NCBI GenBank assembly: GCA_003598025.1
Contig: QZKH01000006.1
Span: forward strand, 172,035-236,034
Direction: 5' to 3'
DNA length: 64,000 nt
DNA from: Candidatus Omnitrophota bacterium
Lineage (GTDB): Bacteria; Omnitrophota; Gorgyraeia; Gygaellales; Profunditerraquicolaceae
Shown: one piece after another, positions 33,577-54,175 of the stretch
Layout: the number at the start of each line of letters is the position of its first letter
Numbering within the stretch: the stretch's first letter is position 1
Made by a program: the position numbers and the translations under genes
The notes under the pieces: model-generated
The model's input: the letters and a program-made list of their open reading frames with translations, nothing else
Databases searched by the model: none
What the model was told of the DNA's origin: nothing

Positions 33577-34407
33577 ATGCGTATAAAAAATGTTTTTATA
33601 ACTTTATTCGTTTTGTCATTGTCTTTTATATTTAACTGTAACTCCCTTGCTCAAGAGAGGGAATATAAAATACAGCCCAATGATGTCATACAGATAACTG
33701 TATTCGGGGAAGAGGACCTGTCGATTACTGCAAAAGTATCTCAAGACGGCACGATTTCTTATCCTCTGCTTGGAGTTATTAAGGTCGCCGGATATACCGA
33801 GCGTAATTTAGCTAAGAACATGACTGAGTGGCTGGGCGAAGATTATTTAGTTATGCCTCAGGTTAGTGTTTTTGTTAAGCAGTATTCGAGGGTCTCCGTA
33901 TTGGGCCAGGTGCGTCTGCCGGGATCATATGAAATAAAAGAGAATCTTACGCTGACCCAGGCAATTGCTTTAGCAGGCGGCTTTACCGAACAAGCAGATA
34001 TTTCGGCAGTAAAGATAATCCATGGTGAGCCGAGTGACGGAGAAAATAATAACAAATTGATTAATGTAAATAAAATTATTGATAAGTCAGCCCCTGATAT
34101 TGAGATCAGCGCCAACGATACCATTGTGGTTGAAGAATACGGCAGGATCTCTATTATCGGCCAGGTTAACAGGCCGGGTATGTACGCGTTAAAAAGAGAC
34201 CTTACGGTTGTCGAAGCCATAGGCCTTGCCGGAGGTTTCACCCCTACTGCTTCTCAAAATGGCACAAGGATAATCAGGGTAGAAGAGAACAACAAGAAGC
34301 AGGTTATAAGCGTCCCTGTTGCAAGCATAATCAGAAGCGGAGATACTTCCAGAGACCAGATATTGCAACCCGGAGACACAATCGTTGTCCCGGAGTCTTT
34401 CTTCTAA
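33577..34407 (+). CDS. wza: polysaccharide export protein Wza-like (Poly_export + SLBB)
   Basis: YKIQPNDVIQITVFG...DGTISYPLLGVIKVAGYT Poly_export motif, then two SLBB repeats (GQVRLPGSYE, GQVNRPGMYA). Confidence 0.85.
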   Translation: MRIKNVFITLFVLSLSFIFNCNSLAQEREYKIQPNDVIQITVFGEEDLSITAKVSQDGTISYPLLGVIKVAGYTERNLAKNMTEWLGEDYLVMPQVSVFVKQYSRVSVLGQVRLPGSYEIKENLTLTQAIALAGGFTEQADISAVKIIHGEPSDGENNNKLINVNKIIDKSAPDIEISANDTIVVEEYGRISIIGQVNRPGMYALKRDLTVVEAIGLAGGFTPTASQNGTRIIRVEENNKKQVISVPVASIIRSGDTSRDQILQPGDTIVVPESFF

Positions 34408-34527
34408 TCTGGCAACCCTTCCTGTATCACTATAACTCTTATATAATAAAAAGGTTATGAGTTTTTAATAATGTGCAAATAACCTATTTATTAAGAGCTT
34501 TTCATGATAAAAAGTTATACAAAACAA

Positions 34528-34556
34528 TTGACTTCATTAATTATTTCTGTTATAAA
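34528..34556 (+). promoter_or_regulatory. sigma70-like promoter TTGACT-17-TATAAA upstream of wzc
   Basis: Hexamers and spacing read directly in the 196-bp AT-rich gap. Confidence 0.35.
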
Positions 34557-34603
34557 TTATATAAATATCAATAGTATTTTCTATTGAAAAGAAAGGGCAG
34601 GCG

Positions 34604-36454
34604 ATGCTACCCACCCCACAGTTTAGGGATGTAACCATAAAAGATTATGCTATTGTTCTAAAAAGAAGGGTTTGGTTGATTCTCGCTTGTTTTATCATTT
34701 CTACCACCTGGTCAGCTATAAAAACATTCCAAAAAACCCCGCTATATAAAACTTCTTGTAAGGTCCTGATGGGCACATCCCGTCCTGATATAGTGCCAGT
34801 AAAAGAAACTAATTTAGACCGTTCCTGGGTTGGTTACATGGAATATGTAAACAGCCAGATTAAGATACTATATTCCCGGACTTTAGCAAGTAAGGTAGTC
34901 GAGTATCTTTCGTCTATAGGGGATAAGACTTTTGCGGATGCACAGGACCCTGAAAGTGCCTTTTTATCAGGTGTCAGCGTTGATTTTGTGCCCGGTACAC
35001 AGGTACTTAATATAGGTTATATAAGCAGCGACCCGGTAAAAGCAGCAAGGTTTGCCAACGCTTTAACTACAACTTATATAAAAGCGGATTTAAGCAAAAC
35101 TTCTCAAGTCAGCAGCTATGCTTCTGATTGGCTTACGCAGCAATTGGATGAGATCAAAAAGAAGCTTGAGGTTTCAGAGAAACAACTTAACGATTTTATC
35201 CAGGAAAATCAGATAATCTCGTTGCCTGATATAGAGAGAAAATCCCAAGTCATACTTGATGGGCTTAAATCCGAGAGGTTAAGGGTTGAGAATGAAATGG
35301 CCGCGTTAGCAACAAGGTATAGGCCGAAGCATCCCTCAATGCTAAGCCTAAAAACAAAATTAGATTCGATAGATAAAAGCATCCAGGATGAGACAAATAA
35401 GTTATTGGCTTTAAACCAGAAGATGATTACTTATAACTCATTAAAGAGAGAAGTAGATACAAATATCTCCTTATATGACGCTTTATTAAGAAGGACAAAG
35501 GAGACAGAGGTTACCAAACAATTAGAGACTACAAATATCAGTATTATTGATTCCGCGGATGTGCCTAAGTACGCCTTTAGCCCGAACCGGAAGAGGGAAA
35601 TAAGCTTAGGCGCCTTTTTGGGTTTTTTTGCCGGAATAATCCTAGCCTTCTTTCTTGAATATCTTGATTCTACAGTTAAGACCGCAGAAGATATAGAAAC
35701 TTATGTAAGGCTTCCTTTCCTGGGGTATATTCCGTCAGCCAAGCATGAGATTAAACTAGGCAAAGATATTGATATTGCTTCAAACAAATTACCGCATTCA
35801 AGGATCTCCGAGGCATACAGGTCTATCCGTACCTCTATAATATTCTCTACACCGGAAGACAGGCCGCTAAAAACCTTGCTTATTACAAGCGCTTCTCCCC
35901 AGGAAGGTAAAACTACAGTTGCAATAAATTTGGCTATAGTCTTTGCTAAATCTAATGAGAAGGTCCTTCTTATCGAAGCAGACATGCGCAGGCCGAGGAT
36001 TTCCGAAAGTCTGGGAGTAAAAGCGCAGTCAGGGTTAAGCAATCTTTTAACGGGTAATAAAGGCGTAGATGATGTAGTGAATCAAACATCCGTTCCAAAC
36101 CTTTATTTTATTTCTAGCGGCCCAAAGCCGCCTAATCCTGCTGAGCTTCTTACTTCAGTTAAAACGCGCAACCTTTTAAATGAGCTTAGGGAGCGGTTTG
36201 ACAGGATTATTATAGATTCTCCTCCGGTAATTTCTGTTGCCGATACTGCCATTTTAGCAAATATCGTTGATGGAGTAATAGATGTTATCCGCGCCGGATT
36301 CCTGAATATTGAGCTTATTTTGAGAGGAAGGCAGAGGCTGTATGAAGCCAAGGCGCGTATAATAGGCGTTATCCTGAATAATGTAAATGTAAAGAGCGAA
36401 GACTCTTACTATTATTACCACTATTATTACGCTGACGATAAAGCAAAAAAATAA
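34604..36454 (+). CDS. wzc: Wzc-like polysaccharide co-polymerase / BY-family tyrosine autokinase
   Basis: Two TM flanking a periplasmic coiled-coil (Wzz/GNVR). Walker A SASPQEGKTTVAINLA. C-terminal Tyr cluster DSYYYYHYYYADD. Confidence 0.85.
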   Translation: MLPTPQFRDVTIKDYAIVLKRRVWLILACFIISTTWSAIKTFQKTPLYKTSCKVLMGTSRPDIVPVKETNLDRSWVGYMEYVNSQIKILYSRTLASKVVEYLSSIGDKTFADAQDPESAFLSGVSVDFVPGTQVLNIGYISSDPVKAARFANALTTTYIKADLSKTSQVSSYASDWLTQQLDEIKKKLEVSEKQLNDFIQENQIISLPDIERKSQVILDGLKSERLRVENEMAALATRYRPKHPSMLSLKTKLDSIDKSIQDETNKLLALNQKMITYNSLKREVDTNISLYDALLRRTKETEVTKQLETTNISIIDSADVPKYAFSPNRKREISLGAFLGFFAGIILAFFLEYLDSTVKTAEDIETYVRLPFLGYIPSAKHEIKLGKDIDIASNKLPHSRISEAYRSIRTSIIFSTPEDRPLKTLLITSASPQEGKTTVAINLAIVFAKSNEKVLLIEADMRRPRISESLGVKAQSGLSNLLTGNKGVDDVVNQTSVPNLYFISSGPKPPNPAELLTSVKTRNLLNELRERFDRIIIDSPPVISVADTAILANIVDGVIDVIRAGFLNIELILRGRQRLYEAKARIIGVILNNVNVKSEDSYYYYHYYYADDKAKK

Positions 36455-36463
36455 TCGTAATAA

Positions 36464-37807
36464 ATGCCAAATCGTATCTTTCTTGCCTGTCTTTTCCTTC
36501 TTGTCATCTTTAGTTGTCTTACCTATGGCGGAGTAACACCTTTATATTCTATGATAATTAATGTGGCGGCCTTATCATTAAGCTGCTGCTGGTTGATTAC
36601 TGCCATTTCTAAAAAAGAGACCTATTTTGTCAAAACCGGTTTAGCCATTCCTGTTTCTTTATTCAGTTTGATTATCTTACTGCAGTTGACGCCTATCCCT
36701 GCCGGCGTGTTAAAAATCTTTTCATATAATATGTACAGAATATATATAATGGCTTTTCCGGAAGCAGGAGAAGGATTATTATTACCCCTGAGCGTTAATC
36801 CGGATTCAACTATCCAAGAATTATTGAATTATGTTGTCCTCATTGTACTTTTTTTTATGACTATCAACATTGTGGATACCAAAAAAGAATTCAACTTTTT
36901 ATTCAATGGGATAATATTTTTCGGGCTTGCAATAAGCATCTTTGGGATAATCCAGAAATATTCTTATTCGTATAAAGTATATTGGTTTGATTCCCCGCAA
37001 ACTGCCACTTCCCCTTTTGGGCCGTTTGTTTACCGCAATAATTTTGCCGGCTATATTAATATGATAATCCCTTTGGCTATCGGTTATTTCTTCCTGGATA
37101 TGCCTTTATCAAAAAGGCTAATTTATGGCTTTTGTATCGGAATAATGGCGTTGGCATTATTCTTGACTTTCTCAAGGGCTGGGATCGCGGTATTTCTTAT
37201 TTGTATTTTGCTTTTATTGGCATTAGCACGGTTTAAAATAAAAACAGATGTAAAAATATTTAATCTTGTCAGTGCCATATTATTAGCCTTAATATCCGTA
37301 TTGTTCTTATTTTTTGTCGATTATAAGGCTCTTTTTATGAGAATAACAACTATATTCAGTGACCAGGCTTTTATTATTTTCGGGCACGGTTATTCTTGGA
37401 AAGATATTGTAAAGATCTGGGCTGATTTTCCTGTTTTCGGTACCGGTTTGGGTACTTTTGGCAGCATATCTTCAATGTATAAGACTACTTTCTCGCAGAA
37501 ATTATTTACTTATGCACACAATGATTTTCTACAGTTGCTATCGGAAGTGGGGATCGTCGGTTGTGCGTTAATCATTATTTTTTTCTTAAAGTATTTTTTG
37601 ACGGTAATAAAACTGTGGTTGAGCAGGCGGGACCCTTTTGTCATATATATTGTGATGGGCGGAATGGTTTCTGTTGCCGGGGTTTTGGTTTATTCATTGT
37701 TAGATTTTAATTTGCATATACCGGCAAATTCCGTACTTTTTTCCGTTTTATTGGGCTTAGTATACCGGCTGACAATTTCAAAATTTCATAATGAGTACAG
37801 CAAATAG
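36464..37807 (+). CDS. O-antigen ligase/Wzy-like polymerase family membrane protein
   Basis: About 10-12 TM with a large loop. Position directly after wzc. Confidence 0.55.
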   Translation: MPNRIFLACLFLLVIFSCLTYGGVTPLYSMIINVAALSLSCCWLITAISKKETYFVKTGLAIPVSLFSLIILLQLTPIPAGVLKIFSYNMYRIYIMAFPEAGEGLLLPLSVNPDSTIQELLNYVVLIVLFFMTINIVDTKKEFNFLFNGIIFFGLAISIFGIIQKYSYSYKVYWFDSPQTATSPFGPFVYRNNFAGYINMIIPLAIGYFFLDMPLSKRLIYGFCIGIMALALFLTFSRAGIAVFLICILLLLALARFKIKTDVKIFNLVSAILLALISVLFLFFVDYKALFMRITTIFSDQAFIIFGHGYSWKDIVKIWADFPVFGTGLGTFGSISSMYKTTFSQKLFTYAHNDFLQLLSEVGIVGCALIIIFFLKYFLTVIKLWLSRRDPFVIYIVMGGMVSVAGVLVYSLLDFNLHIPANSVLFSVLLGLVYRLTISKFHNEYSK

Positions 37808-38501
37808 CGAACATATTTTTGTGTTTAAGGCAGATAAATATCGGAAATATATAATTATTGCCCTGATAGTATTGCTTTTTTTGTTATTTGGCTCTCTCAG
37901 TATATCCAGATATATAGCTGCAGAAAGTTTTATGAAAGCAGAGGAGCTATTTAATAATGCCCAGGCAATAAGCGAAGATATTTTATTAGAAAAATCGTTT
38001 GCGTATCAAAAAACTATTAGATTATTAAATCGGGCAATTTCTCATAACAAATACAATGCCGATTATTACAGTTTCCTTTCAAGTTTATTATATACGGTAG
38101 TTGATAATCAGTCTCTTGCCGAACTCATTATGATCAATAATAAGGATTACTTTAAATCTCATAAGATATTGGATGCTGCCGAGTGGTATCAGGCGGAAGC
38201 TATTTTAAGGAATCCTGCCAATTACCTGTATTATTATAAGCTTGCTGAATTGTATATTAAATCCGGAGATACTATTAAGGCCGAAGAACAGCTGAAGAAG
38301 TCTATTCTATTTGATCCGCAGAATATAAATTTGAATCTTTCGCTGGCAAAGTTTTATTTAGACAGGGGAGATAGCGAGGAGTTTAAGAAATACCTCAAAG
38401 TTGCAATGGGCTTAGACAGGCTTGAATCAAAAGGCAAAGTATCTGAGAAGATGAATAATTTCCTAATAGGTATTGGGCAGGAGGGGGCTGTTACCGAATG
38501 A
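37791..38501 (+). CDS. TPR-repeat membrane-anchored protein
   Basis: N-terminal TM, TPR-like repeats. Confidence 0.4.
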   Translation: MSTANSEHIFVFKADKYRKYIIIALIVLLFLLFGSLSISRYIAAESFMKAEELFNNAQAISEDILLEKSFAYQKTIRLLNRAISHNKYNADYYSFLSSLLYTVVDNQSLAELIMINNKDYFKSHKILDAAEWYQAEAILRNPANYLYYYKLAELYIKSGDTIKAEEQLKKSILFDPQNINLNLSLAKFYLDRGDSEEFKKYLKVAMGLDRLESKGKVSEKMNNFLIGIGQEGAVTE

Positions 38502-39601
38502 AGATATTGGTCGTTGGTGCCGGGCCCGTAGGGTCTTATGTTTCCAGGCTTTTGCAAAAGAAGGGCAAAAACCTGGATATTACTGTCATTGAAGAACATC
38601 CTGAAGTCGGCAAGCCGGTGCATTGCGCCGGGCTTGTAAGCACTAAAGTATTTAGCGAAATAAGCCTGCCGTCTTTAAGTAAGAATCTCGTGCTTAACAA
38701 GATAGATGGGGCGGATTTTCATTTTGAGAATGAATCCTTCAGGATAAGAAGAAAGAACGCGGCTTTTGTAATAAACCGGAAGGATTTTGATATTTCTCTG
38801 GCAGAAGGCTTAAACATTGATTTTAATACTAAATTTGTCGGCATAGAGAAGAACCATAAATTTTTCATTGTTGAAACCGACAAAAGGGAATATGAGGCAG
38901 ATATAGTCATAGGCGCAGACGGTGCTAATTCTTTAGTAAGAAAGGTATTAAACCCCTCAAATAGCATACAATGTTTGCGGGGAGTGCAGTTCAGGATAGA
39001 ATCCCGCCAGCATGAAAGCAATTTTGTGCAGGTTTATTTAACTGACGAATCTTTTGCTTGGGTGATACCTGAGAATTATGGCATCGTAAGGGTAGGGATA
39101 TTGTCCGATAATCCTTATAAAGACTTAACTGATTTTATTGAAAAGGTGGGGATAAAAGGAGCGATACTTGAAAAATTCGCCGGATTAGTACCGATAGGCT
39201 CATGCCTTACCCAAAACCAGGGCCTGGTTTTGGTTGGGGATGCTGCTTGCCAGGTAAAGCCTTTAACACATGGAGGTATTTATTACGGAATGCGATGTGC
39301 TGAAGTGCTTGCTGATTGTATAATAAATTCTAAGATTAATGAGTATGAAAAGAGATGGAAAGCCAAATTTGATAGGGAGATACAGATCGGCCTTAAAGCC
39401 AGGAAATTTTATCAAAACTTAAGCCGTGATAATAAGAAGAGAATATTCAAATTACTTAAAAATAACGTTAAAATCCTGGAGAAATTTGGTGATTTCGAGA
39501 ACCATTCCAGGGTAATTTCTGCACTAATAAAAAATCCATCTTTACAAAGTTTTTTCGGTAAAGTATTTATAAGTTTTTTAAGAAACAATTCTATTCCTTA
39601 A
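38498..39601 (+). CDS. geranylgeranyl reductase family FAD-dependent oxidoreductase
   Basis: MKILVVGAGPVGSYVSRLL FAD motif. GDAACQVKPLTHGGIYYGM signature as in ChlP / digeranylgeranylglycerophospholipid reductases. Confidence 0.7.
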   Translation: MKILVVGAGPVGSYVSRLLQKKGKNLDITVIEEHPEVGKPVHCAGLVSTKVFSEISLPSLSKNLVLNKIDGADFHFENESFRIRRKNAAFVINRKDFDISLAEGLNIDFNTKFVGIEKNHKFFIVETDKREYEADIVIGADGANSLVRKVLNPSNSIQCLRGVQFRIESRQHESNFVQVYLTDESFAWVIPENYGIVRVGILSDNPYKDLTDFIEKVGIKGAILEKFAGLVPIGSCLTQNQGLVLVGDAACQVKPLTHGGIYYGMRCAEVLADCIINSKINEYEKRWKAKFDREIQIGLKARKFYQNLSRDNKKRIFKLLKNNVKILEKFGDFENHSRVISALIKNPSLQSFFGKVFISFLRNNSIP

Positions 39602-39624
39602 TTTTTTTATAATCATTAAAAGCG

Positions 39625-40623
39625 ATGAAAATTTTTCTAATAGGCACTTTTATGCCATCCAGTATTGAATATTCCTACCTTAGGGCCTTCCTGCGCCTGG
39701 GCCATACCGTAAAATGTTTTGATACCACACACAAGAACCTTTTTATTAAGATAATCAAAAAAAAATTAGACAACCGAATAATTTTTTCGGAAATAAAAAA
39801 TTTTAATCCTGATTTAATATTTGTAATCAAGGGATATGAAGTATTGCCGGAGACAATTGATAAGATCAGGGATATTTCACGGGCCAGAATATTCTGCTTT
39901 AATAGCGATGATCCTTTTGAGATAACCATCAAGGGCACCAGCAACAGCAATATCCTTGATTCCATACCTTTTTATGATCATTATTTTACTTGGTCAAAAG
40001 TACTGTTAAATATCCTTAAGCAAAAAGGCGGCGCCAGGAACGTAGGGTATCTGCCTTTTGGTTTTGATTCATTTTTTCATTATCCGCAGACTTTATCTAA
40101 ACATGAAGCCGATAAATATTTCAGTGAAATAACCTTCGTCGGCAGCTGGGATGAGGAGAGGGAAAAATGGCTTAAAGAGTTAAGTAGTTTTAATTTAGGG
40201 ATATGGGGTAATTCGGATTGGTTGTTTAAATGTTCAGATAGATGGTTGAGGGGCAGATGGAAGAAAAAAGAAATGTTTGCTCAGGATATGTCAAAGGTCG
40301 TCGGTTCATCGCATGTATCGCTGAATATCTTGCGGTTGCAAAATAAGGGCAGTCATAATATGCGTACATTTGAGGCCCATGCAAGCCAGGCTTTTGTAAT
40401 CTCAGAGAGAAGCCCTGAAATCTGCGAATTATTCAAGGAGGATAGCGAAGCGGTATACTTTTCAGATCCCAAAGAAATGAAAGACAAGGTCGCATATTAT
40501 TTAAAAGCAGATTTTTTACGAAAAAAGATTGCCTTTTCAGGGTACAAAAGATGCCTGAAAAGCAGTTATTCATATCTGGATAGGGCAAAACAAGTATTGA
40601 AAACCTATGAAGAACTCAAATAA
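39625..40623 (+). CDS. hypothetical protein, CgeB/DUF3880-like putative glycosyltransferase
   Basis: Weak resemblance only (GT-B like C-terminal half). No definitive motif. Confidence 0.3.
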   Translation: MKIFLIGTFMPSSIEYSYLRAFLRLGHTVKCFDTTHKNLFIKIIKKKLDNRIIFSEIKNFNPDLIFVIKGYEVLPETIDKIRDISRARIFCFNSDDPFEITIKGTSNSNILDSIPFYDHYFTWSKVLLNILKQKGGARNVGYLPFGFDSFFHYPQTLSKHEADKYFSEITFVGSWDEEREKWLKELSSFNLGIWGNSDWLFKCSDRWLRGRWKKKEMFAQDMSKVVGSSHVSLNILRLQNKGSHNMRTFEAHASQAFVISERSPEICELFKEDSEAVYFSDPKEMKDKVAYYLKADFLRKKIAFSGYKRCLKSSYSYLDRAKQVLKTYEELK

Positions 40624-45964: not shown

Positions 45965-45977
45965 GAGCGCAAAGATA

Positions 45978-47900
45978 ATGGGCATAGTAAACAAAAAAGA
46001 AATAACCGCAAAAAAATTGATTATAAGCTATATCCCCATGTCGGGATCTATGTTTGAGTTCAGGTTTAAAGCCATATTAAAGAAAAAGTATCAAGATTGT
46101 TCTTTTGTTTGCCTTGACCTGCGCTCTCGCAGGATAATGGACGAAATCGGTTTGAAGTATAGCAAAACAGACAATTATCTGGATGAGAACAAAGCAGAGT
46201 TGTTTTTGAAAAGCTTTACAACCTTTTTTGACTTTTCTGAAAGCTCATTAAATATAAGCGCACTGTTGACTTCTGGCAGGTTAACCCTGAATTCCTATCT
46301 GAACATAATTAAATATGATTATTTGACCAAAGCCGGTCCTGCTTTTTTTATGGAATTTATTATCCGGGAGATTATATATAAAGAATCTCCTGATGAGGTG
46401 ATTATAATATTTGAAAGGGGGATTTTTCGTAAAGTTGCTTTAAATGTTTTAAAAGAAGCAGGGATAAAGCACGGCGCCGTTAATACCGCTATTGACGGAT
46501 TTATACTAAGGCCCATAGTGGCACTATTAAAAATCAAATCAGTGCTAAAGTCATTTTATCTGTATTGCTACGATGTCTTGCGATTAATAAAGAGACGTTC
46601 TTTTATATCAGCCAAGGTTTTTCAAAATAAAATCCTGTTTTCGGACCCAAGGATTCTTCCGGATAGAAGAGTAGTTGTCGCCGGCTATAATTTCGGTACG
46701 GAAATGACGCTTTCAATGGGAATACTTGATCGGCTTAGGCAAAACGGATGGCATGTGGATTTTATCAGTAGCTGTTTCAAAAACTTTACCATCCGGATGA
46801 TGACAACAAACAAAATAAATGTTTTTATTCTCAATTCTATGGTCCGAATTAAAGACGGAAAAATAATAAATCAATCGCTTAAGACTATACTTAATGAAAT
46901 AAGATTGAACGCTAACTCCGGCAAAGGATTATTTTATAAGCATAGCAATCTGGATTTTCTTGCTATTGATAACAAACTTCGCAGATATTTCTTTTCCTCC
47001 CGCGCAATAAAAGATATCCTGATTTATATTTTTGGGCTTCAGAAGTACATACATTTATATAAGCCAGAATTGTTAATTATTAATTCTGACGCGTCTTCTT
47101 TTGGTTATCTAGCGGTAAAGATAGCCAAAGAAAGCAATGTTGCTTCAGTTTCCTGCCCTGGTTTGTTCCAGCAATTTTTTAACAAATTTATGCCGTCTTT
47201 TGACCGAGGGTTATGCGATAAGCTGCTGGTATCGGGAGAACGGATAAAAGAACATTTAGTCAAAAATGGTTCGGCCCAAAACAGAGTGATAGCAATAGGT
47301 GTGCCTAACTGGGAGGCGGAGCTTAAAAAAAGAAGAAAATTAAATTATAAGGATTTTTGTAATAGCTTAAAGGTTTCTTCTGAAAAAGATATAATCCTTT
47401 TTACTTCGCAGGGTCTTGAGGAGGATGCTGAAATTATAAGGATGTTGATTAATTTGATGCGGGCTAATCCCGACAAACAATTAATATTTAAACTCCATCC
47501 ATGTGAAAATGGCGGAGCTAAGGCGCTAAGAATAAGGCTTTCTGGGCTGAAGAATATAAAAGTAGTAGACCGGTATAATTTATGGGAATTGATCGATGCT
47601 TGCAGGATACTTATAACTTGCACATCGGTTACCGTGCTTCAGGCTATGATATTGGATAAACCAAGTATAGTTATTAAACAGGGTTTCAGGCCTTATCTCT
47701 CCGATTTTATTAAAGAGGGGGGGGTTGTTATGGCGGAAGGCCCGAAATCTCTCGATTCTACCGTTAATAGGTTAGTGAAAGACGTGCAGTTCAGACAAAT
47801 GGTGATATCAAAAGGCAGAGATTTTATCGAAAAATACTGTAAAGCGCCTGTAGATACTTTGGATTATTTGACCGAAGCATTGATACGCACAGCCGGATGA
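45978..47900 (+). CDS. TagF/KpsS-like (CDP-glycerol glycerophosphotransferase / Capsule_synth clan) protein, tentative
   Basis: C-terminal KLHP...ILITCTSVTVLQAMILDKPSIV pattern resembles GT-B Glyphos_transf/Capsule_synth families. 640 aa. Confidence 0.3.
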   Translation: MGIVNKKEITAKKLIISYIPMSGSMFEFRFKAILKKKYQDCSFVCLDLRSRRIMDEIGLKYSKTDNYLDENKAELFLKSFTTFFDFSESSLNISALLTSGRLTLNSYLNIIKYDYLTKAGPAFFMEFIIREIIYKESPDEVIIIFERGIFRKVALNVLKEAGIKHGAVNTAIDGFILRPIVALLKIKSVLKSFYLYCYDVLRLIKRRSFISAKVFQNKILFSDPRILPDRRVVVAGYNFGTEMTLSMGILDRLRQNGWHVDFISSCFKNFTIRMMTTNKINVFILNSMVRIKDGKIINQSLKTILNEIRLNANSGKGLFYKHSNLDFLAIDNKLRRYFFSSRAIKDILIYIFGLQKYIHLYKPELLIINSDASSFGYLAVKIAKESNVASVSCPGLFQQFFNKFMPSFDRGLCDKLLVSGERIKEHLVKNGSAQNRVIAIGVPNWEAELKKRRKLNYKDFCNSLKVSSEKDIILFTSQGLEEDAEIIRMLINLMRANPDKQLIFKLHPCENGGAKALRIRLSGLKNIKVVDRYNLWELIDACRILITCTSVTVLQAMILDKPSIVIKQGFRPYLSDFIKEGGVVMAEGPKSLDSTVNRLVKDVQFRQMVISKGRDFIEKYCKAPVDTLDYLTEALIRTAG

Positions 47901-47980
47901 TTAAAGAATAACCGGTATTTAAATAACATCCTTATGATTATCTGATATGCGCATAATCATTTTTATACAAGAGGCATAAT

Positions 47981-49042
47981 TTGGGCAACATAAAAGAATA
48001 TAAAACTGAAGACAAAAATAGAATCTTTGAACTTTTAAGCAGGACGTATAATCCACAGCTGGTAAAGATTTATGAGTCTATCTGGGAATGGTTATTTACT
48101 AATAATCCATTTTTGCCCGGAGATTCAGGTTGCGTATCAATTATGGAAGAAGGTAATGATTTAGCAGGGGTAGTCTGCAGTATTTTTGCGGATGTAAAAT
48201 TAAATAATTGTATCCGTAAATGCCGCTGGGCAAGTTTCTTTATTATCGATCAGCGGTACCGAGGGTCTGGAATTGAATTAGCCACGTCTGTTATGAATTC
48301 CAAATACCACCCTATGTTCGGTTTCCCGAATCCCAAAGCATCCGTCTTTGAGAAAAACTTAGGCTTTAGGCATATAGGCAATATTAAAAGTAGAATCCGT
48401 ATATTTAACATTTCGTCTTTTTTTAGAAGAATCCGGATTGATGTGCCTATTCTTAGTAAGACTGCAGATATATCCACAGCCTCCGACAAAGAGCTGGATT
48501 ATGATGATAATGGATTAAATATACGGAGAATATTTGATTTTGATGATACCTTTGATGATTTTTGGGAAATGGCTGCGTCAGGATATGATTATATAGTCGT
48601 CAGGAGCAGGTCATACCTGCATTGGAGATTTGTCGATTCGCCAATCAAGTATATGATTTATAAAGCTATCGGTAAGGATAATAGTCTAAAAGGGTATATC
48701 GTGCTCAGGATTCTTAAAAATAAAATAATGACTAAAGGCTATATCGTGGATATTTTTGCAAGGCAGGATGATTTTAAATCCATTAATTCATTAGTCAAGT
48801 TTTCCGTGTGTTTATTTAAGAAGGAAAAATGCGATCTTGCAGAATGCCTTATTTCTACCTCAAGGAGCGCTTACAATAGAGCATTATATCTTAACGGCTT
48901 TATCATAAACAGGCCTAAAGTAGAATTTTTGTTTTTTTCAGGCTTAGAAAGTGATATGTCACAAATCAGCGTTTTAGGCAAATGGTTCATTACTGCAGCC
49001 GACCCGGATTTAGAGATGACTAATATTTTCCCGGGAAGTTAA
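47981..49042 (+). CDS. GNAT-family acyl-CoA N-acyltransferase (FemAB/BioF2-like), paralog A
   Basis: QRYRGSGIELA acetyl-CoA-binding R-G-x-G motif. TTG start. Paralog of 51013..52053. Confidence 0.5.
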   Translation: MGNIKEYKTEDKNRIFELLSRTYNPQLVKIYESIWEWLFTNNPFLPGDSGCVSIMEEGNDLAGVVCSIFADVKLNNCIRKCRWASFFIIDQRYRGSGIELATSVMNSKYHPMFGFPNPKASVFEKNLGFRHIGNIKSRIRIFNISSFFRRIRIDVPILSKTADISTASDKELDYDDNGLNIRRIFDFDDTFDDFWEMAASGYDYIVVRSRSYLHWRFVDSPIKYMIYKAIGKDNSLKGYIVLRILKNKIMTKGYIVDIFARQDDFKSINSLVKFSVCLFKKEKCDLAECLISTSRSAYNRALYLNGFIINRPKVEFLFFSGLESDMSQISVLGKWFITAADPDLEMTNIFPGS

Positions 49043-49077
49043 TTTAAGCAAATTTGAGCGATTAAGGGGTAAGAGTC

Positions 49078-50100
49078 ATGCTTCCTGAAGTATCCGTAAT
49101 TATACCGACTTATAATAGATGCCTTTCTCTGGAAAAATGCCTGTATTCTTTGCTAAATCAGAGTTTTGATAAGAATGCTTATCAAGTAGTAGTAGTTGAT
49201 GATGGCTCAACCGATAATACGCAAGAGGTGATAAATAAATTCCGTTTTGACAAAAACGAGAACCTTATTTACGTTAGGCAGGAGCATGGAGGCACTTCTT
49301 CTGCCTGTAATTGTGGGATAAAACAAGCGAGCTCAAATCTGCTTGCATTTACAGAAGATGACTGCATATTAAAAGCGGATTGGATTAGCCAGATCGTGGC
49401 ATTTAGTAGATTTTATCCGGATGCAGACGCCTGGGGGTGTATGGTAATTAACAATTTTTTTGATAAAAACCATGGCTATAACCTGCAATTTGAGGATCTG
49501 CAATTGGCCAAAAGGCGGAAATCACGCTCTATGCATAAAATTAATGTTTTTGGTTTTGTTAATGTTTTGGCAGGGAATTGCGCTATCAGAAAGAAAGTTT
49601 TCTCGGATTTGGGCGGTTTTGATACTAATTTTATTTATTGTGAGGACGCAGAGTTTACAATAAGGATGTTAAAATACAAATATAAGGTATTGATCAATAA
49701 TGATATGATTGCCCGGCACTACATTACGGCTAAATTGCCTATAAACGTAAAGAAAAATTTTAATTTCGGAGTAGGTAACAATCTTGCACTGAGAAAGCAT
49801 TTTGATAAAAAAGTCATTCTTCCTTTCTATGATCCAGAAAATAATAAGTTCTTACTCAGGTTTCCGGTTATGCTCTTTTTGCATTTTGGCCGCAAAGAAG
49901 TAATTCTGGCAGTCTTTATATTTTCTGCTGTATTATTTCCGCATGTTTGCGTTTTCTTGGTTGTCGGAGGGTTTTTATACTATTCTTTAGTTTTTAGAAA
50001 TATTAAAGCAGCAGCCTTCCATATGTTTTTCAATGCGGCTGTTTATCTTTCGGAGAGCATCGGATTTTTAACAGGCTATTTGCGGGTGTTTAAGCGATGA
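49078..50100 (+). CDS. GT2-family glycosyltransferase with C-terminal TM region
   Basis: VSVIIPTYNR...VVVVDDGSTDNT...FTEDDC motifs. Confidence 0.8.
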   Translation: MLPEVSVIIPTYNRCLSLEKCLYSLLNQSFDKNAYQVVVVDDGSTDNTQEVINKFRFDKNENLIYVRQEHGGTSSACNCGIKQASSNLLAFTEDDCILKADWISQIVAFSRFYPDADAWGCMVINNFFDKNHGYNLQFEDLQLAKRRKSRSMHKINVFGFVNVLAGNCAIRKKVFSDLGGFDTNFIYCEDAEFTIRMLKYKYKVLINNDMIARHYITAKLPINVKKNFNFGVGNNLALRKHFDKKVILPFYDPENNKFLLRFPVMLFLHFGRKEVILAVFIFSAVLFPHVCVFLVVGGFLYYSLVFRNIKAAAFHMFFNAAVYLSESIGFLTGYLRVFKR

Positions 50101-50110
50101 GGGGGTTTCT

Positions 50111-51016
50111 ATGGCAGATTTAGGGGTTATAATACCTACCAGGAATAGGATAGGCCCTCTTTTTAAATGCCTGGAGTCATTAGTCAAGCAGGATTGTAGC
50201 AAGGATAAATTTGAAATATTCGTAGTTGAAGACGGCTGTAGTAGCAATATCAAGGGACTGGTTAACGATATCGCTGTTTGCGGAAATAACATAAGATATC
50301 TTAGCAACAATAAAAAAAGCGGTGCATCAGCTACTAGAAATTTAGGGTTAAAAATTTGTCACTCAGAAATCATTGCTTTTGTAGACGATGATTGCCGTTT
50401 GCCTGCGAATTGGGTAAGAAATATCTTATATTATCATAGCAAATATCCTGATGCCAAAGTTATCCAGGGTGAGGTTTTGGCCGACTCTTTAAAAAGTATA
50501 TTTGAAATCTCGGAATATCTGATCTACAGTGTTTTTTTTAAGAAAAGTATATATGAGCATAATGGTATTAAATCAATAGATATCCTTAATGCAGCGAATC
50601 TTTCATTAAAAAGGAGTATCATAGACGATAAAACGCTATTTTTTCGGGAAGATTTTAAATTCTCGGAAGATATTGATCTATCCAATAGGATCCTTTCCAA
50701 AGGAACGATTTTTTTCTACGTTGAGGATATTAAGGCCTATCATTCATACAGCAGCGATATATTTTCTTTTATAAGAAGAGGCATACGCGACGGCAGGGGG
50801 GAATATTTGATTAAGTGCTCTAAAGGTGCGCCTAAACAAGACAAAATTACAGGGATTCGGGGTATTAACTTTTTTAATTTTATGGTTAAGCTATATTTCA
50901 GGGAGTTTAGCATAGGCAAATCAATGGTTTTAACCCAACTGCATATATTAAGATGCTTATTGAGGCGTTTAGGTTTTGTATTTCAATTGGTTGTAATGGC
51001 TATTATTAAAACATGA
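50111..51016 (+). CDS. GT2-family glycosyltransferase
   Basis: LGVIIPTRNR...FVVEDGCS...FVDDDC motifs. Confidence 0.7.
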   Translation: MADLGVIIPTRNRIGPLFKCLESLVKQDCSKDKFEIFVVEDGCSSNIKGLVNDIAVCGNNIRYLSNNKKSGASATRNLGLKICHSEIIAFVDDDCRLPANWVRNILYYHSKYPDAKVIQGEVLADSLKSIFEISEYLIYSVFFKKSIYEHNGIKSIDILNAANLSLKRSIIDDKTLFFREDFKFSEDIDLSNRILSKGTIFFYVEDIKAYHSYSSDIFSFIRRGIRDGRGEYLIKCSKGAPKQDKITGIRGINFFNFMVKLYFREFSIGKSMVLTQLHILRCLLRRLGFVFQLVVMAIIKT

Positions 51017-52053
51017 TAAGAAGATTCAGAAAAGAAGATATTAAAGATTTGGCTGAATTGGCAAGTTCAGTTCTAGGGCCGACTTCAGAAAGACTTTTGC
51101 ACTGGCTGTTTATTGATAACCCTTTTTTACCTAAAGGCAAGACCAACCTTGTATTGGAGGAGGATTCTAAGATAGTCGGTATGGCTTTTAATGTCTATGT
51201 TAAATTGAAATTTTATGATAGGACACTTGATGCCAGATGGGCTTGTTTTTTTGTGACTAGCCCTGATTACAGGGGTTCAGGTATTGAGCTTGCAGAACAG
51301 TATATACAGATACCGTATTATCCTTTTTTGGCTTTTTCCACCAAGAAGCATTTTATGATGGAGTCAAGATTCGGTTTTAAAAAAATCTTTGATATATGCA
51401 GCTATATCAGCATAATCGATTTTAAAAAATTATTTAGATTTAAATTAGGAAAAAATCTTTTTCTTGAGCGCATCGGAGAATTTCTAAACCGATTACTCGG
51501 GTTAGGAAGCAAGATATGCGCTGAAAGAATGCCCAAAGGTTTGAATTTTGAGGAGATTACATATTTTGACGAAAGATTTAATGATTTATGGCGTAGGTGT
51601 TCGCCATATTACCAGATACTGGTTAAAAGGGATAAAGATTACCTGAATTGGAGGTTTACGCGTTCTCCATCGCAGTACAGGATTATTGCCTTAGTTGATG
51701 ATACCAAAGTTTACGGCTATATAGTTATCTCTGTGAACGAGAAGAATGGGCTTAAGAAAGGGGCTATCCTTGATTTGTTAGCAGCAAATGATAATAAAAC
51801 TGCTGTCATTGATGCGCTTTTGTCTGAAGCTTTAAGATATTTCAGGAAGGAAGGATGTTATTCTGCGGATTTTCTCATTCTTACCGCGAAAAAAGAATAC
51901 TTAAAGCCAATGCGCAAGCATGGTTTCTTATTTAAAAGACTGAGGTCTACCTTTGTGGTTTATAAAAAATGCGGGGGGGATATCAAGGGCTTAAGAAACT
52001 GGAAAAACTGGTTTGTCACGCGCTCTGACCCGGATTTAGAATTATGCGATTAA
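51013..52053 (+). CDS. GNAT-family acyltransferase, paralog B
   Basis: SPDYRGSGIELA motif. Conserved C-terminal RSDPDLEL (paralog A ends AADPDLEM). Confidence 0.5.
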   Translation: MIRRFRKEDIKDLAELASSVLGPTSERLLHWLFIDNPFLPKGKTNLVLEEDSKIVGMAFNVYVKLKFYDRTLDARWACFFVTSPDYRGSGIELAEQYIQIPYYPFLAFSTKKHFMMESRFGFKKIFDICSYISIIDFKKLFRFKLGKNLFLERIGEFLNRLLGLGSKICAERMPKGLNFEEITYFDERFNDLWRRCSPYYQILVKRDKDYLNWRFTRSPSQYRIIALVDDTKVYGYIVISVNEKNGLKKGAILDLLAANDNKTAVIDALLSEALRYFRKEGCYSADFLILTAKKEYLKPMRKHGFLFKRLRSTFVVYKKCGGDIKGLRNWKNWFVTRSDPDLELCD

Positions 52054-53120
52054 AATCTTATATTAAGCGTTTATCTTATTGTTCAAGCAGGGTTGTGTTC
52101 TATATTATGATATTTACACGTTTCCCGGCAGTAGCCTTGAATTATTATAGATATATTACCGGTGGCAAGAAAATAAGAGTCAGTCATTCTCCGTTGCTTG
52201 TAAATTTTTATATCACAAATAAGTGTAATTTTAATTGCCGGATGTGCCTTAGGAAAGAACAAGGATATGCCGATAGCGCCGGCATGAGAAAAGATATGGA
52301 TTTAGGCAAATTCAGCGAATTGCTTGCCAAATTCAATAAATGTATCTATGTGCAGTTTGCCGGTTTAGGGGAACCGCTTTTAAATAAAGATATTTTTAAA
52401 ATGATGTCTTTGGCAAGAGAAAGAAGGAAAGGGATAATTTTATATACAAATGCCGCTTTTCTCGATCAGCAGGCAGCGGTCAGGATATGTGATTTAGGGG
52501 TACATAGAGTTAACATTAGCCTGTATGGAGCAAACCCTGAAGAGTTTTTTGCTAACACTGGCAGCGACAGGCAAGATTATTATTCAGTCCTGGATAACAT
52601 CAGCCGTTTGGTAAGAATCAAGAAAAGTAGAAGCCCGAGGCTTATGGTGTCAATATTATATATCTGCTCAAAACGTAACATTGACGATTGCTTAAAGGTA
52701 ATTGATATAGGTAATTTACTCGGGGTCGACGAAATACACTTTAATAATTTCAATCATCAGCCTTTTGATGCGGAAGCCGGAAAGGATTGGTACTTATTTG
52801 AGGATGATATGGAAGTTGTTAAAACGGTGGCGAGAATGAGGAGCTATTACTCATATGCGCAAGTATTTGCTCCGGCTGTTTTAAAGATAAGCGCGCCTAA
52901 GAAAGCCTGTCCTTCTTACTACAAGTATATTAATATAGATTATGAAGGCAATGTTGCCGGATGCTGTAAATTTTCATACCCGGTTAAGGAGAACGGGAAC
53001 ATCTATTCTGATAAGGATATATTCAATACGGACCATTTTTTAAAGATGAGATCCATTTTTACCGGTAAGCACTGTGAATTGCCGCGGAATTGTAAGTTAT
53101 GCCAGGAGATCTACAAGTGA
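52044..53120 (+). CDS. radical SAM/SPASM-like protein
   Basis: FYITNKCNFNCRMC (CX3CX2C). C-terminal GCCKF...CKLCQ cysteines. Overlaps both neighbours. Confidence 0.7.
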   Translation: MRLKSYIKRLSYCSSRVVFYIMIFTRFPAVALNYYRYITGGKKIRVSHSPLLVNFYITNKCNFNCRMCLRKEQGYADSAGMRKDMDLGKFSELLAKFNKCIYVQFAGLGEPLLNKDIFKMMSLARERRKGIILYTNAAFLDQQAAVRICDLGVHRVNISLYGANPEEFFANTGSDRQDYYSVLDNISRLVRIKKSRSPRLMVSILYICSKRNIDDCLKVIDIGNLLGVDEIHFNNFNHQPFDAEAGKDWYLFEDDMEVVKTVARMRSYYSYAQVFAPAVLKISAPKKACPSYYKYINIDYEGNVAGCCKFSYPVKENGNIYSDKDIFNTDHFLKMRSIFTGKHCELPRNCKLCQEIYK

Positions 53121-54175
53121 TAGAGCCTACAGTAGCCCCTGAGCCAGGTAAGAACTTAAGAGTTCTATTTATTGAGCTTTGCCGATTAGGAGACGTAGTT
53201 TGCGCTTTGCCTGCGATAAGGATATTCAGGGGGCATTATGCAGAAGCTGAGATAACCGTGTTAACCGAGCCCGGTTACGAAGGGATAGTTGATGCAGCCG
53301 GATGTGGATGCAAGGCCATATCCTTTGTTGGGGAAAATAAGCTTTTAAGCACCTTAAGGACGCTTTCTTATCTAAGAAAAAACAGTTTTGACTTAGTCGT
53401 CTCACTTAGCCCTGCAAAAAGAAATTCCCTCGTCGCTTTTTTTTCTAAAGCAAAGATAAAATCAGGATATTTTACTTTATTTAGGAAGATATCCGGTTTA
53501 GATGAAAGCATTGTAAAGATCTTTGTAAAGCGCAGCGTAAAAAGGGCGGGGCAATTTAAAAGGAATGAGAATATTATCAAAAGGGCTCTAAAACCGTTAG
53601 TAGCATTGGGCTTAGATGTACGGGTATTGGGAAAAACGTTATTATTACCAAAAAGCGTGGAGACTGATGCGATTGATTTTTTAACCAGGGTAAAAAAGTA
53701 CAGGAAAACTATATCTGTGCAAGTTTGTTCTTCTTCAAGATTCCGGGATTGGCCAGAAGAAAACTTTATAAAATTGTTTAATTTGCTTAAGAACTACGAT
53801 ATATTAGTATTCGGTTCTGAGCAAGAAAGACAGAGAATTGATAGGGTTGTTAATGATTCTGATTGCAACATTATACCTGTTATCGGTTATCCGATTATTC
53901 AGGCCGCTGCCATGATAGCCAGGAGCGACCTGTTTATAGGTCTTGATTCAGGTTTGATGCATATTGCTGATTCTCTATGTGTTCCAATGGTGCTTATCTT
54001 CGGTCCATCTAACCCGGTTGTGACCGGCACCATCAATCGGACAGCTGCAATAATAAGCAAGAACTTTGAATGCAGCCCTTGCAGACAGGATATTTGCGCT
54101 AGGAAAATAAAATGCATGCGTTCTATAAATCCGGAAGAAGTCTTTAAAGAGGTCATTAAGAAAATTAACGTGTAG
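53099..54175 (+). CDS. GT9-family glycosyltransferase (heptosyltransferase-like)
   Basis: GLDSGLMHIADSLCVPMVLIFGPSNP motif. Confidence 0.8.
   Translation: MPGDLQVIEPTVAPEPGKNLRVLFIELCRLGDVVCALPAIRIFRGHYAEAEITVLTEPGYEGIVDAAGCGCKAISFVGENKLLSTLRTLSYLRKNSFDLVVSLSPAKRNSLVAFFSKAKIKSGYFTLFRKISGLDESIVKIFVKRSVKRAGQFKRNENIIKRALKPLVALGLDVRVLGKTLLLPKSVETDAIDFLTRVKKYRKTISVQVCSSSRFRDWPEENFIKLFNLLKNYDILVFGSEQERQRIDRVVNDSDCNIIPVIGYPIIQAAAMIARSDLFIGLDSGLMHIADSLCVPMVLIFGPSNPVVTGTINRTAAIISKNFECSPCRQDICARKIKCMRSINPEEVFKEVIKKINV

Follow-up and report, generated by a model that had tools for sequence, protein, structure and literature searches.

What is known about the systems that come closest to the one described here can be told briefly. 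In WaaC, one of the lipopolysaccharide (LPS) heptosyltransferases of family GT9, the key residues are D13, K192, E222, D261 and H266. D13 and H266 are kept in all characterised heptosyltransferases, D261 and H266 frame the signature D261-(T/S)-(G/A)-x-x-H266 (WaaC numbering), and K192, which touches heptose O5/O6, is Lys in L,D-heptosyltransferases and Arg in some D,D-heptosyltransferases (Merino et al. 2013, PMC3559599). In the phylum Omnitrophota, a hypervariable polysaccharide cassette of about 26 kb has been described, with Wzc, an O-antigen ligase, an LPS exporter, glycosyltransferases and LPS heptosyltransferase II (bioRxiv 10.64898/2026.05.20.726742, section 21). Kuenenia stuttgartiensis and Desulfotalea psychrophila have unusual clusters for type II fatty acid synthesis (FASII), in which Kuste2805 and Kuste3606 carry X163/Asn298/Glu333 (Rattray et al. 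2009, PMC2649909). In this paper, we turn to a stretch of 64,000 nucleotides from a Candidatus Omnitrophota bacterium (assembly GCA_003598025.1, contig QZKH01000006.1, positions 172,035 to 236,034; hereafter, the window), in which Wza/Wzc-type export genes, three GT9 proteins and an acyl-chain module stand in one long array of surface-glycan genes.

The Omnitrophota are uncultivated bacteria, many of them ultra-small and perhaps dependent on a host. Together with its relatives, the locus forms a gene set that is conserved in the lineage and probably determines the make-up of the cell surface. One part of it, the Omnitrophota cassette that joins Wzc, O-antigen ligase and heptosyltransferase II, is already known (10.64898/2026.05.20.726742). 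The conserved parts that are uncharacterised are four: a GT9 clade with the motif GIGN, a family of tandem GNATs with fusions to acyl carrier protein (ACP), polyketide synthase (PKS) and glycosyltransferase domains, a 640-residue protein that we call P640, and a ketosynthase/chain-length-factor (KS/CLF) module inside a glycan array.

How, then, should such an array be read? We argue that it is a consolidated envelope-glycan island, where the genes for an LPS core, for a capsule- or O-type polysaccharide and for a lipidation module have come to lie together, and we regard this as an even call, as likely to be right as wrong. The array is a single co-directional run on the + strand, from about 30.6 kb to past 64 kb, where the window ends: 30 same-strand genes that overlap or stand no more than 36 bases apart, with gaps of 64, 54, 197 and 81 bases as the exceptions. 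The first-pass annotation had bounded the locus at 33577-54175, which is too narrow: it misses the PilZ and EpsL-like genes on the upstream side and, on the other, the acyl-chain module with the deacetylase and WecG. Position 54175 is an arbitrary end and no real boundary, because the next gene begins 12 bases further on and the same-strand genes continue past 62.7 kb. G+C drops to 0.36 in the glycosyltransferase part (36001-38000 and 44001-52000), from 0.40-0.42 both in the acyl module (54-58 kb) and in the flanks, and the low value fits a variable (hypervariable) polysaccharide cassette. Promoter and terminator scans gave nothing above shuffled expectation and so were uninformative on operon limits; no tRNA genes flank the region.

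Open reading frames (ORFs) were listed, and all sizeable ones in the 64-kb window were scanned against Pfam and NCBIfam. Scores are read against the Pfam gathering score or the curated NCBIfam equivalog cut-off, which is the second figure wherever two are given below. These scans and the comparison with other genomes show to which families the proteins belong, what motifs they carry and which of them are paralogues, and also how the genes are ordered, where synteny is conserved and which domains are fused. The elements that the first-pass annotation had named (Wza, Wzc, a Wzy-like protein, a geranylgeranyl-reductase homologue, GT2 and GT4 enzymes, three GT9 proteins, a TagF/KpsS-like protein, two GNATs and a radical SAM enzyme) were all recovered where it had placed them, on the + strand.

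The three GT9 proteins

41860..42927, + strand: GT9#1, predicted WaaF-type heptosyltransferase II (PF01075 168.4 bits; TIGR02195 234.7 bits vs 134.6)
44780..45964, + strand: GT9#2, a divergent, membrane-anchored GT9 protein with Asn for the catalytic Asp (PF01075 118.9 bits; N-terminal hydrophobic segment)
53099..54175, + strand: GT9#3, a GT9 protein without assignment to a type, with Arg at the WaaC K192 position (PF01075 96.3 bits; below all equivalog cut-offs)

All three proteins pass PF01075, whose gathering score is 22, and pass it by far; all three align by sequence to the solved WaaF, WaaC and 3TOV structures, carry the signature D(T/S)(G/A)xxH in the form DSGLMH and keep the equivalent of Glu222. 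The first-pass annotation had worried that such matches might reflect the GT-B fold and nothing else. They are genuine, and the three belong to the family. Because they are only 26-30% identical to one another, they are ancient paralogues and not recent duplicates.

GT9#1 is the most conventional of the trio. It has the Asp13 equivalent (in WLGDAV) and Lys at the K192 position (in AKRWP), and against Escherichia coli WaaF (1PSW) it aligns at E 3.7e-39 with the GD, AKRWP and DSGLMH motifs kept; its orthologue in a related locus, L008, scores 218.9 bits against TIGR02195. We predict, from these matches, that it is a WaaF-type enzyme. Some relatives within the WaaF clade carry a fused HAD domain that falls just under the GmhB cut-offs (165 vs 178 and 137.6 vs 149.6 bits), in proteins whose GT9 part passes the WaaF model, and because this fused domain is GmhB-like (that is, like the heptose-bisphosphate phosphatase), it indicates a heptose-handling role, by prediction, for the relatives of GT9#1. 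The public JGI gene call for GT9#1 (P0001, 326 aa) leaves off the first 29 codons of the ORF as it is started here. That shorter start would remove the conserved N-terminal G-D catalytic motif, and homologues align from about residue 10 of the longer ORF.

The other two are less orthodox. Both fall short of the WaaF equivalog TIGR02195 (GT9#2 at 96.6 bits and GT9#3 at 87.9), and none of the three reaches the WaaC equivalog TIGR02193 (70.5, 64.0 and 73.0 bits for GT9#1, #2 and #3 vs 185.3); no WaaC equivalent was identified in the 64-kb window. GT9#2, which is under every heptosyltransferase equivalog cut-off, has Lys at the K192 position (WKRW) and no Asp13 equivalent, its sequence there being GIGN where every other GT9 protein shows G-D. 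This motif is common to the whole GT9#2 clade (P0122-P0125, P0127, P0130, L008:10001-11218, L037:8442-9614 and L038:5738-6760), most of whose members also have the N-terminal hydrophobic extension. In L037, the GT9#2-clade gene adjoins a Wzx flippase, NeuB/PseF-like genes and a Capsule_synth-like protein; in L038, an Elusimicrobiota contig, it lies between a MurJ/Wzx-like flippase, a GT4 enzyme and a Wzy_C protein. For enzymology, this clade is one lead: its GT9 proteins carry Asn where the catalytic Asp is otherwise universal, and they lie in Wzx/Wzy contexts. GT9#3, mapped on WaaC (2GT1), keeps D13 (as D32), E222 and DSGLMH, and has Arg216 where WaaC has K192.

Is GT9 really a family of lipid A-core assembly, as the first-pass annotation had it? 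For most characterised enzymes, yes; for the sequence family, no, because GT9 homologues occur also in Ktedonobacteria and in archaeal metagenome-assembled genomes and because the GT9#2 clade lies beside Wzx and Wzy_C genes in other phyla. The claim as it had been worded was too strong. Its companion idea, that core-type enzymes here sit next to capsule export genes, agrees well with GT9#1; the arrangement recurs in Omnitrophota, so it is not unusual, and we would call GT9 beside Wzc a recurrent trait of the phylum, judging by these genomes, and not an anomaly.

A gene set shared with related loci

42924..43700, + strand: GT2a, glycosyltransferase, conserved partner of the WaaF-type GT9 (PF00535)
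45978..47900, + strand: P640, 640 aa, with a C-terminal WecB/KpsC-like GT-B domain (Epimerase_2 37.5 bits, Capsule_synth 24.8 bits)
47981..49042, + strand: tandem-GNAT paralogue a, 353 aa, without a family match of its own
51013..52053, + strand: tandem-GNAT paralogue b, 346 aa, N-myristoyltransferase/Eis-like fold (PF00583 28.7 bits vs 20.7)
54187..54939, + strand: FabG-like 3-oxoacyl-ACP reductase of the short-chain dehydrogenase/reductase (SDR) family (NF009466 227.3 bits vs 222)
54911..56161, + strand: KAS1, CLF-like ketosynthase paralogue without the catalytic triad (likely start ATG at 54944; below the FabF cut-offs)
56172..56414, + strand: ACP with DSL motif (PF00550 56.9 bits)
56392..56967, + strand: FabZ/FabA-like dehydratase (PF07977 66.1 bits)
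56954..58168, + strand: KAS2, FabF-type ketosynthase with Cys-His-His (NF005589 392.8 bits vs 387)
58172..59641, + strand: amine-oxidase/CrtI-like flavoprotein (PF01593 78.2 bits)
59641..61104, + strand: B12-binding radical SAM enzyme (best match HpnJ, 152 bits vs 577)
61101..61928, + strand: NodB/PgaB-type polysaccharide deacetylase with an N-terminal transmembrane segment (PF01522 107.2 bits)

In seven genomes, the window's included, a P640 homologue adjoins a WaaF-type GT9 gene or lies no more than three genes from it, and most of these genomes also have GT2a, tandem GNATs, an SDR, a radical SAM-SPASM or B12-binding radical SAM enzyme and PIG-L- or YdjC-type deacetylases. GT2a, which may resemble core glucosyltransferases of the WaaE/LgtF type (a lead only) and whose closest PDB relatives are GmaR and SunS, has orthologues (39-41% identical) directly 3' of the WaaF-type gene in L001/L002, L008/L009, L010 and L011. 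In L039/L040, the genes that come after the P640/GT9/GT2a set have nothing to do with it (RNase T and a tRNA-binding protein are among them), and L039 likewise has three GT9 genes. In L001/L002 and L008, the set adjoins an ABC exporter, which the scores in L001 and L008 (292 and 433 bits vs 602) place in the MsbA family and no more closely than that; for a Hep-Kdo2-lipid A acceptor of GT9#1, this neighbor is the one hint from context.

The fullest parallel is found in L008/L009 (JGI contigs Ga0209514_10000245 and Ga0082335_1000043), where nearly the whole arrangement recurs in a different order: GT9_1 at 40% identity, GT2a at 41%, GT9_2 at 44%, P640 at 29% and a GNAT at 35%, and from the acyl module the SDR at 52%, KAS1 at 47%, ACP at 47%, the dehydratase at 39% and KAS2 at 59%. 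These loci hold, besides, Wza, a Wzc-like ATPase, Wzz, an ABC exporter, GT2b, an amine oxidase, a second GNAT, a GT2 enzyme and a radical SAM-SPASM enzyme. Because the genes come back together at 26-59% identity and in shuffled order, the recurrence argues against chance adjacency.

P640 is the stranger in this set. Its C-terminal 280 or so residues form a GT-B nucleotide-sugar domain: searched against the PDB, its profile finds UDP-GlcNAc 2-epimerase at 4.5e-9, KpsC at 1.9e-4 (over about 90 residues) and WaaA at 0.13. The match to PF05159 (KpsC/KpsS), at 24.8 bits vs 20 and covering just 84 residues, is weak and partial, and BFO_1060 and TIGR04396 are under cut-off. The N-terminal 360 or so residues matched no known relative. 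P640 homologues adjoin a WaaF-type gene in six other genomes, and a protein that travels with WaaF-type genes in this way is a second lead for enzymology; a search of genome contigs with P640 alone found nothing, and with an alignment it found three distant loci. In related loci, P640-like genes have as neighbors two radical SAM-SPASM genes, one for a KdsC-like phosphatase and genes for nonulosonic acids of the NeuB-like and PseF-like kinds (L001:4622-8134; L037:1750-3341 and 13448-14167). It is the NeuB-like and PseF-like neighbours in L001 and L037 that suggest P640 may be a CMP-ulosonic-acid transferase, and gene content of this kind suggests an unusual ulosonic-acid sugar in the related lineages that bear P640.

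The two tandem GNATs of the window are 30% identical (E 3e-56), and both carry the pyrophosphate-binding motif (R/Q-x-x-G-x-G/A) as YRGSGIELA. An AlphaFold model made with seven sequences (pLDDT 87.4, pTM 0.87) has two GNAT lobes, for which the best PDB folds in Foldseek are N-myristoyltransferases, the MAB_4324 tandem GNAT and Eis-like proteins (E about 1e-11, TM-score 0.52-0.61). The family is large, with 4441 cluster representatives at E <= 1e-3, and its fusions are telling. The domain occurs at the C-terminus of a 4085-aa type I PKS (P0290), behind the last ACP; it is fused elsewhere to ketoreductase-ACP, to ACP alone, to GT2 and to GT4 (among P0309, P0375, P0391, P0346 and P0364), and in L004:6848-9844 (- strand) to a P640-like (Capsule_synth-like) domain. 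In these fusions, it looks like an uncharacterised off-loading or acyl-transfer domain. Mainly because the fusions join ACP and PKS domains to glycosyltransferases, we infer that the tandem GNATs of the window would move an ACP-bound acyl chain onto a glycan, the simplest target being an amine that the deacetylase has set free. The first-pass annotation had already proposed an acylated glycan, and the idea gains independent support from the fusions and from the adjacent ACP/KS set, the acylation itself remaining a proposal. Acyl-ACP-dependent acylation of glycans, as these fusions suggest it, makes the family a third lead.

The acyl-chain module, to which the deacetylase is a neighbour, centers on its two ketosynthases. 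KAS1 has Gln/Asn/Glu where the alignment calls for Cys/His/His, and in L009 its orthologue (L009:14756-15964) has Phe/Asn/Glu, the KAS2 orthologue there having Cys/His/His. Kuste2805 and Kuste3606 show the KAS1 pattern too, which connects this array with the FASII clusters of anammox bacteria and Desulfotalea. From these residues, we predict that KAS2 and KAS1 are a type II KS/CLF-type pair with KAS2 as the active partner. The L008 orthologue of the dehydratase also matches ApeI-like proteins. For the flavoprotein, all carotenoid equivalogs are below cut-off; a ladderane-type identity for the B12-binding radical SAM enzyme (TIGR04072) was rejected at 86.7 bits vs 360. The full KS/CLF set occurs in just 2 of the 7 genomes, the others having the SDR only, with or without FabH, and these SDR-only genomes fit short N-acyl groups better than a membrane anchor. 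That sets of the Kuenenia/Desulfotalea type, with KS/CLF, flavoprotein and radical SAM genes, should be tied to glycan genes hints that those clusters may work for surface glycolipids and not for bulk membrane lipids.

Export genes, other enzymes and surroundings

30605..31489, + strand: TPR protein with an N-terminal hydrophobic segment, first gene of the array (Pfam TPR, hydropathy; weak PrsT-like match, 46 bits vs 312)
31553..32149, + strand: PilZ-domain protein, probable cyclic di-GMP (c-di-GMP) receptor (PF07238 41.4 bits vs 22.5)
32203..33549, + strand: outer-membrane beta-barrel, BBP2_2/EpsL-like (PF10082 33.6 bits vs 23.7; signal-like N-terminus; TIGR03016 and TIGR03014 below cut-off)
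33577..34407, + strand: Wza-type outer-membrane polysaccharide export (OPX) protein (Poly_export 81.2 bits, SLBB 88.8 bits)
34604..36454, + strand: Wzc-type PCP-2a co-polymerase and tyrosine autokinase (Wzz, GNVR and AAA_31; TIGR01007 188.9 bits vs 108)
36464..37807, + strand: Wzy_C-family membrane protein, polymerase or ligase (PF04932 67.9 bits vs 31.7; at least 9 hydrophobic segments)
37791..38501, + strand: TPR protein with an N-terminal transmembrane segment (family scan, hydropathy)
38498..39601, + strand: geranylgeranyl-reductase-family flavoprotein (TIGR02032 165.2 bits vs 158.8)
39625..40623, + strand: Glyco_trans_1_2/DUF3880 glycosyltransferase-like protein (PF13524 91.6 bits)
40607..41839, + strand: GT4 glycosyltransferase (PF00534 86.2 bits)
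43687..44787, + strand: GT4b glycosyltransferase (PF00534 160.2 bits; orthologues 40-41% identical in L003 and L004)
49078..50100, + strand: GT2b glycosyltransferase (PF00535 108.1 bits; orthologue 32% identical in L008/L009)
50111..51016, + strand: GT2c glycosyltransferase (PF00535 74.2 bits)
52044..53120, + strand: radical SAM/SPASM enzyme (PF04055 49.3 bits, PF13186 22.3 bits)
61895..62674, + strand: WecG/TagA/CpsF-family glycosyltransferase (PF03808 180.8 bits; TIGR00696 134.2 bits vs 69)
62710..64000, + strand: multi-pass membrane ORF running off the end of the window (from the translation; GT-C-like by hydrophobic pattern alone)

The export head has what marks a Wzy-dependent system, an OPX protein together with a tyrosine autokinase of the PCP-2a type whose C-terminal tail is rich in Tyr. 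Every NCBIfam equivalog for Wza is below its cut-off; Wzc has two transmembrane segments, the Walker A motif GKT and the tail SYYYYHYYY that is typical of BY-kinases. The Wzy_C family also takes in the WaaL ligases, and a PDB sequence search with the Wzy_C protein gave no relative and, hence, no separation of WaaL from Wzy. An XrtA/PEP-CTERM exopolysaccharide locus was ruled out, all its equivalogs being below cut-off (pepcterm_export 151.1 vs 180, TyrKin 149.1 vs 230.65 and ChnLen 113.6 vs 278.85; for the barrel, EpsL 26.6 bits vs 275 and TIGR03016 44 vs 90.85) and the window holding no exosortase.

Among the remaining genes, the geranylgeranyl-reductase-family flavoprotein had no homologue in the related loci. 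The radical SAM-SPASM enzyme passed no equivalog and has a 45% identical homologue in L009. Enzymes of the WecG/TagA family act on polyprenyl-PP-GlcNAc. The membrane ORF at the window's end found no NCBIfam match and no PDB sequence relative.

Upstream of the array, on both strands between 23103 and 29844, lies an isoprenoid set made up of a polyprenyl synthase (-), a UbiA prenyltransferase, Pyr_redox_2 and DoxX proteins, a CrtI/amine-oxidase-like protein, LytB/IspH (-) and a squalene/phytoene synthase (-). Together with the reductase at 38498-39601, it might go into making a carotenoid, a polyprenyl lipid in saturated form or a lipid of the squalene type. There is also a c-di-GMP theme (6468-8363, 10068-12026 (-), 13041-14699 and 31553-32149), comprising a PAS histidine kinase-GGDEF fusion, a histidine kinase-PilZ fusion, an MshEN-domain type II secretion ATPase (T2SSE) and the stand-alone PilZ protein; the ATPase heads an operon like those of type II secretion systems and type IV pili (12.2-21.8 kb), and the PilZ gene heads the glycan array. 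Farther out, packed closely between 953 and 6471, are two B12-binding radical SAM genes with those for a small GT2 enzyme, a GT-C glycosyltransferase (PMT_2) and a phosphatidylserine decarboxylase, and across the whole window, there are three B12-binding radical SAM genes and two for radical SAM-SPASM enzymes.

Readings and described counterparts

If the island reading is right, the array would have three parts. The first, an export and assembly head, would consist of the PilZ protein, the EpsL-like barrel, Wza, the Wzc autokinase and the Wzy_C polymerase or ligase; the second, a lineage-conserved core, of GT9#1, GT2a, P640, the GT4 and GT2 enzymes and the two further ancient GT9 paralogues; and the third, for acylation, of the presumably active ketosynthase and its CLF-like partner, ACP, ketoreductase, dehydratase, flavoprotein, B12-binding radical SAM enzyme, tandem GNATs and NodB-type deacetylase. 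On the cytoplasmic face, GT9#1 and GT2a would lengthen an inner core of the lipid A-Kdo type, and WecG, the GT4 and GT2 enzymes and the membrane-anchored GT9#2 would assemble a polyprenyl-linked unit, which the Wzy_C protein would polymerise or ligate and which Wzc and Wza would carry across the envelope under the control of c-di-GMP through PilZ. Amino sugars would be de-N-acetylated and then reacylated by the tandem GNATs with a chain built on the dedicated ACP. The sugar donors, the acceptors, the pairing of lipid with cargo and the choice between one product and two are things that we infer.

Several observations weigh against this reading, and they should be put together in one place. Neither the LPS-core half nor the capsule half is complete within the window. 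Its scanned ORFs include no lpx (lipid A), Kdo/kds, waaA or waaC genes, none for heptose nucleotides (gmhA, hldE or hldA with hldC, gmhB and hldD), no Wzx flippase and no initiating phosphoglycosyltransferase of the WbaP or WecA type (these two may be encoded elsewhere in the genome) and no ABC exporter. The heptose-rich glycan that the first-pass annotation put forward is conjectural. The Omnitrophota literature that was searched is silent on LPS, lipid A and heptose, and LPS production by this bacterium is presumed. GT9#2 does without the Asp that all characterised heptosyltransferases conserve, so its catalysis and donor are putative. The single-sequence AlphaFold model of P640 is poor (pLDDT 33). 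Only 2 of the 7 genomes have Wza and Wzc no more than 10 kb from the GT9 core, so the halves may be functionally separate; conversely, that L008/L009 show the whole arrangement again could point to one product and not two.

Could it, then, be one product? A single LPS-independent pathway, with Wzy_C as its polymerase and Wzc and Wza as its exporters, might make a heptose-containing, acylated exopolysaccharide (EPS) or capsule on a polyprenyl carrier. This was the reading preferred by the first-pass annotation, and we think it unlikely, if worth keeping in mind. The tight co-directional packing favors it, as does the return of the same families in L008/L009 in another order, and to these one can add the family knowledge about WecG/TagA substrates, the GT9#2-clade genes beside Wzx and Wzy_C in L037 and L038 and the GT9 homologues in organisms without LPS. 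It has to contend, however, with a GT9#1 that exceeds the WaaF cut-off by 100 bits, with five genomes where GT9#1 orthologues, P640 and GT2a stand without Wza or Wzc within 10 kb, beside unrelated genes or an MsbA-family exporter, and with a window that has neither Wzx nor an initiating transferase. Or the product might be a lipoglycan independent of lipid A, where an acyl chain from KS/CLF and ACP would be put on a de-N-acetylated amino sugar by the tandem GNATs, the glycolipid would be extended by P640 and the GT9, GT2 and GT4 enzymes, an MsbA-family exporter would flip it and Wza/Wzc would export it, following the logic of Nod factors or of the anchors of Vi antigen and group 2 capsules. 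The Rosetta-stone fusions of tandem GNATs to ACP or PKS and to GT2, GT4 or P640-like domains speak for it, and the clustering of deacetylase, ACP, ketosynthase and GT2 genes, the MsbA-family gene within the L008 cluster, the weak likeness of P640 to KpsC/KpsS and the glycosyltransferase and polysaccharide-deacetylase-like genes of the Kuenenia FASII cluster all point the same way; yet the window has no ABC exporter, the acyl donor of the GNATs is putative and their fold match moderate (TM-score 0.52-0.61), the five genomes without a full KS/CLF set fit short N-acyl groups better, and a WaaF-type GT9#1 favors a lipid A-Kdo acceptor. We hold this version to be distinctly unlikely. About as much of a long shot is a bolder form of it, in which the conserved set (KS/CLF-ACP genes, tandem GNATs, NodB-type deacetylase, P640, WaaF-type and Asn-variant GT9 proteins and either an MsbA-family or a Wza/Wzc exporter) would make an undescribed Omnitrophota envelope lipoglycan with a polyketide-like acyl anchor, amide-linked by a tandem GNAT straight from acyl-ACP to a de-N-acetylated sugar, and the GT9 proteins, those of the Asp-less clade included, would decorate that lipoglycan and not lipid A.

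Perhaps, of course, there is nothing to connect, and operons for capsule export, LPS core and fatty acid-type synthesis without any functional link were made neighbors by chance or by island formation. For this speaks that in 5 of the 7 genomes the 10 kb on either side of the GT9 core hold no Wza or Wzc; the lower G+C of the glycosyltransferase part (0.36 vs 0.40-0.42) is of the kind seen in mosaic polysaccharide islands, and the Omnitrophota polysaccharide cassette has been called hypervariable (10.64898/2026.05.20.726742). Against this stand start and stop codons that overlap across the supposed operon boundaries, domain fusions that tie the modules together and the recurrence of Wza/Wzc, GT9_1, GT9_2, P640, GNAT and KS/CLF-ACP genes in L008/L009 in shuffled order, which is hard to explain without selection for linkage. 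We consider it very improbable. The reading that we prefer is still that of an envelope-glycan island with core, polysaccharide and lipidation parts.

How does the array compare with the systems that are already described? With the enterobacterial WaaC and WaaF (CAZy GT9), all three GT9 proteins share PF01075 membership, the signature and E222, and GT9#1 shares D13, K192 and the WaaF model as well; GT9#2 differs by its Asn at D13 and its membrane anchor and GT9#3 by its Arg at K192, which is D,D-heptosyltransferase-like. Unlike the enterobacterial waa regions, the window has no nearby waaA, waaC, kds or gmh/hld genes, and the partners found in it (the 640-aa GT-B protein, the tandem GNATs and the radical SAM enzymes) are foreign to known waa regions. 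The Wzy-dependent group 1 capsule and EPS systems (E. coli K30 and colanic acid) have the OPX protein, the full-length PCP-2a kinase and the Wzy_C protein in common with the window, which differs in that it lacks Wzx, the Wzb phosphatase and an initiator of the WbaP/WecA type and has an EpsL-like barrel and a PilZ protein instead. GT9 enzymes are no part of the group 1 systems as described. With the KpsS and KpsC beta-Kdo transferases of group 2 capsules and with WecB-type GT-B proteins, the C-terminal part of P640 shows a weak and partial likeness, in a window that, unlike a group 2 capsule locus, has no KpsMT transporter and no CMP-sugar genes.

The lipid side has its own counterparts. The logic of Nod factor synthesis (NodC, NodB, NodA, NodF and NodE), with a GT2 backbone, a NodB-type deacetylase, a private ACP and ketosynthase and an acyl chain moved to the freed amine, is shared by way of analogy and not of membership: the NodB and NodC models score far under their cut-offs (52 bits vs 240 and 47 vs 550), and a tandem GNAT would stand in for NodA. 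With the Kuenenia/Desulfotalea FASII clusters, the window shares an active-type FabF and its triad-less paralogue, ACP, a dehydratase, an amine-oxidase/phytoene-desaturase-like protein and a B12-binding radical SAM enzyme; the Kuenenia cluster also has a polysaccharide-deacetylase-like gene and a glycosyltransferase (PMC2649909), a likeness by pattern and gene content. The window differs in that its B12-binding radical SAM enzyme falls short of the ladderane model and in that the module is embedded among Wza/Wzc and GT9 genes. The Omnitrophota cassette of the preprint lists an LPS exporter and AlgI/AlgJ and names no ACP/KS module, no tandem GNATs and no multiple GT9 clades. With it, the window shares, as far as annotation labels can be compared, not only the phylum but also Wzc, an O-antigen ligase/Wzy_C-type protein, glycosyltransferases and heptosyltransferase II.

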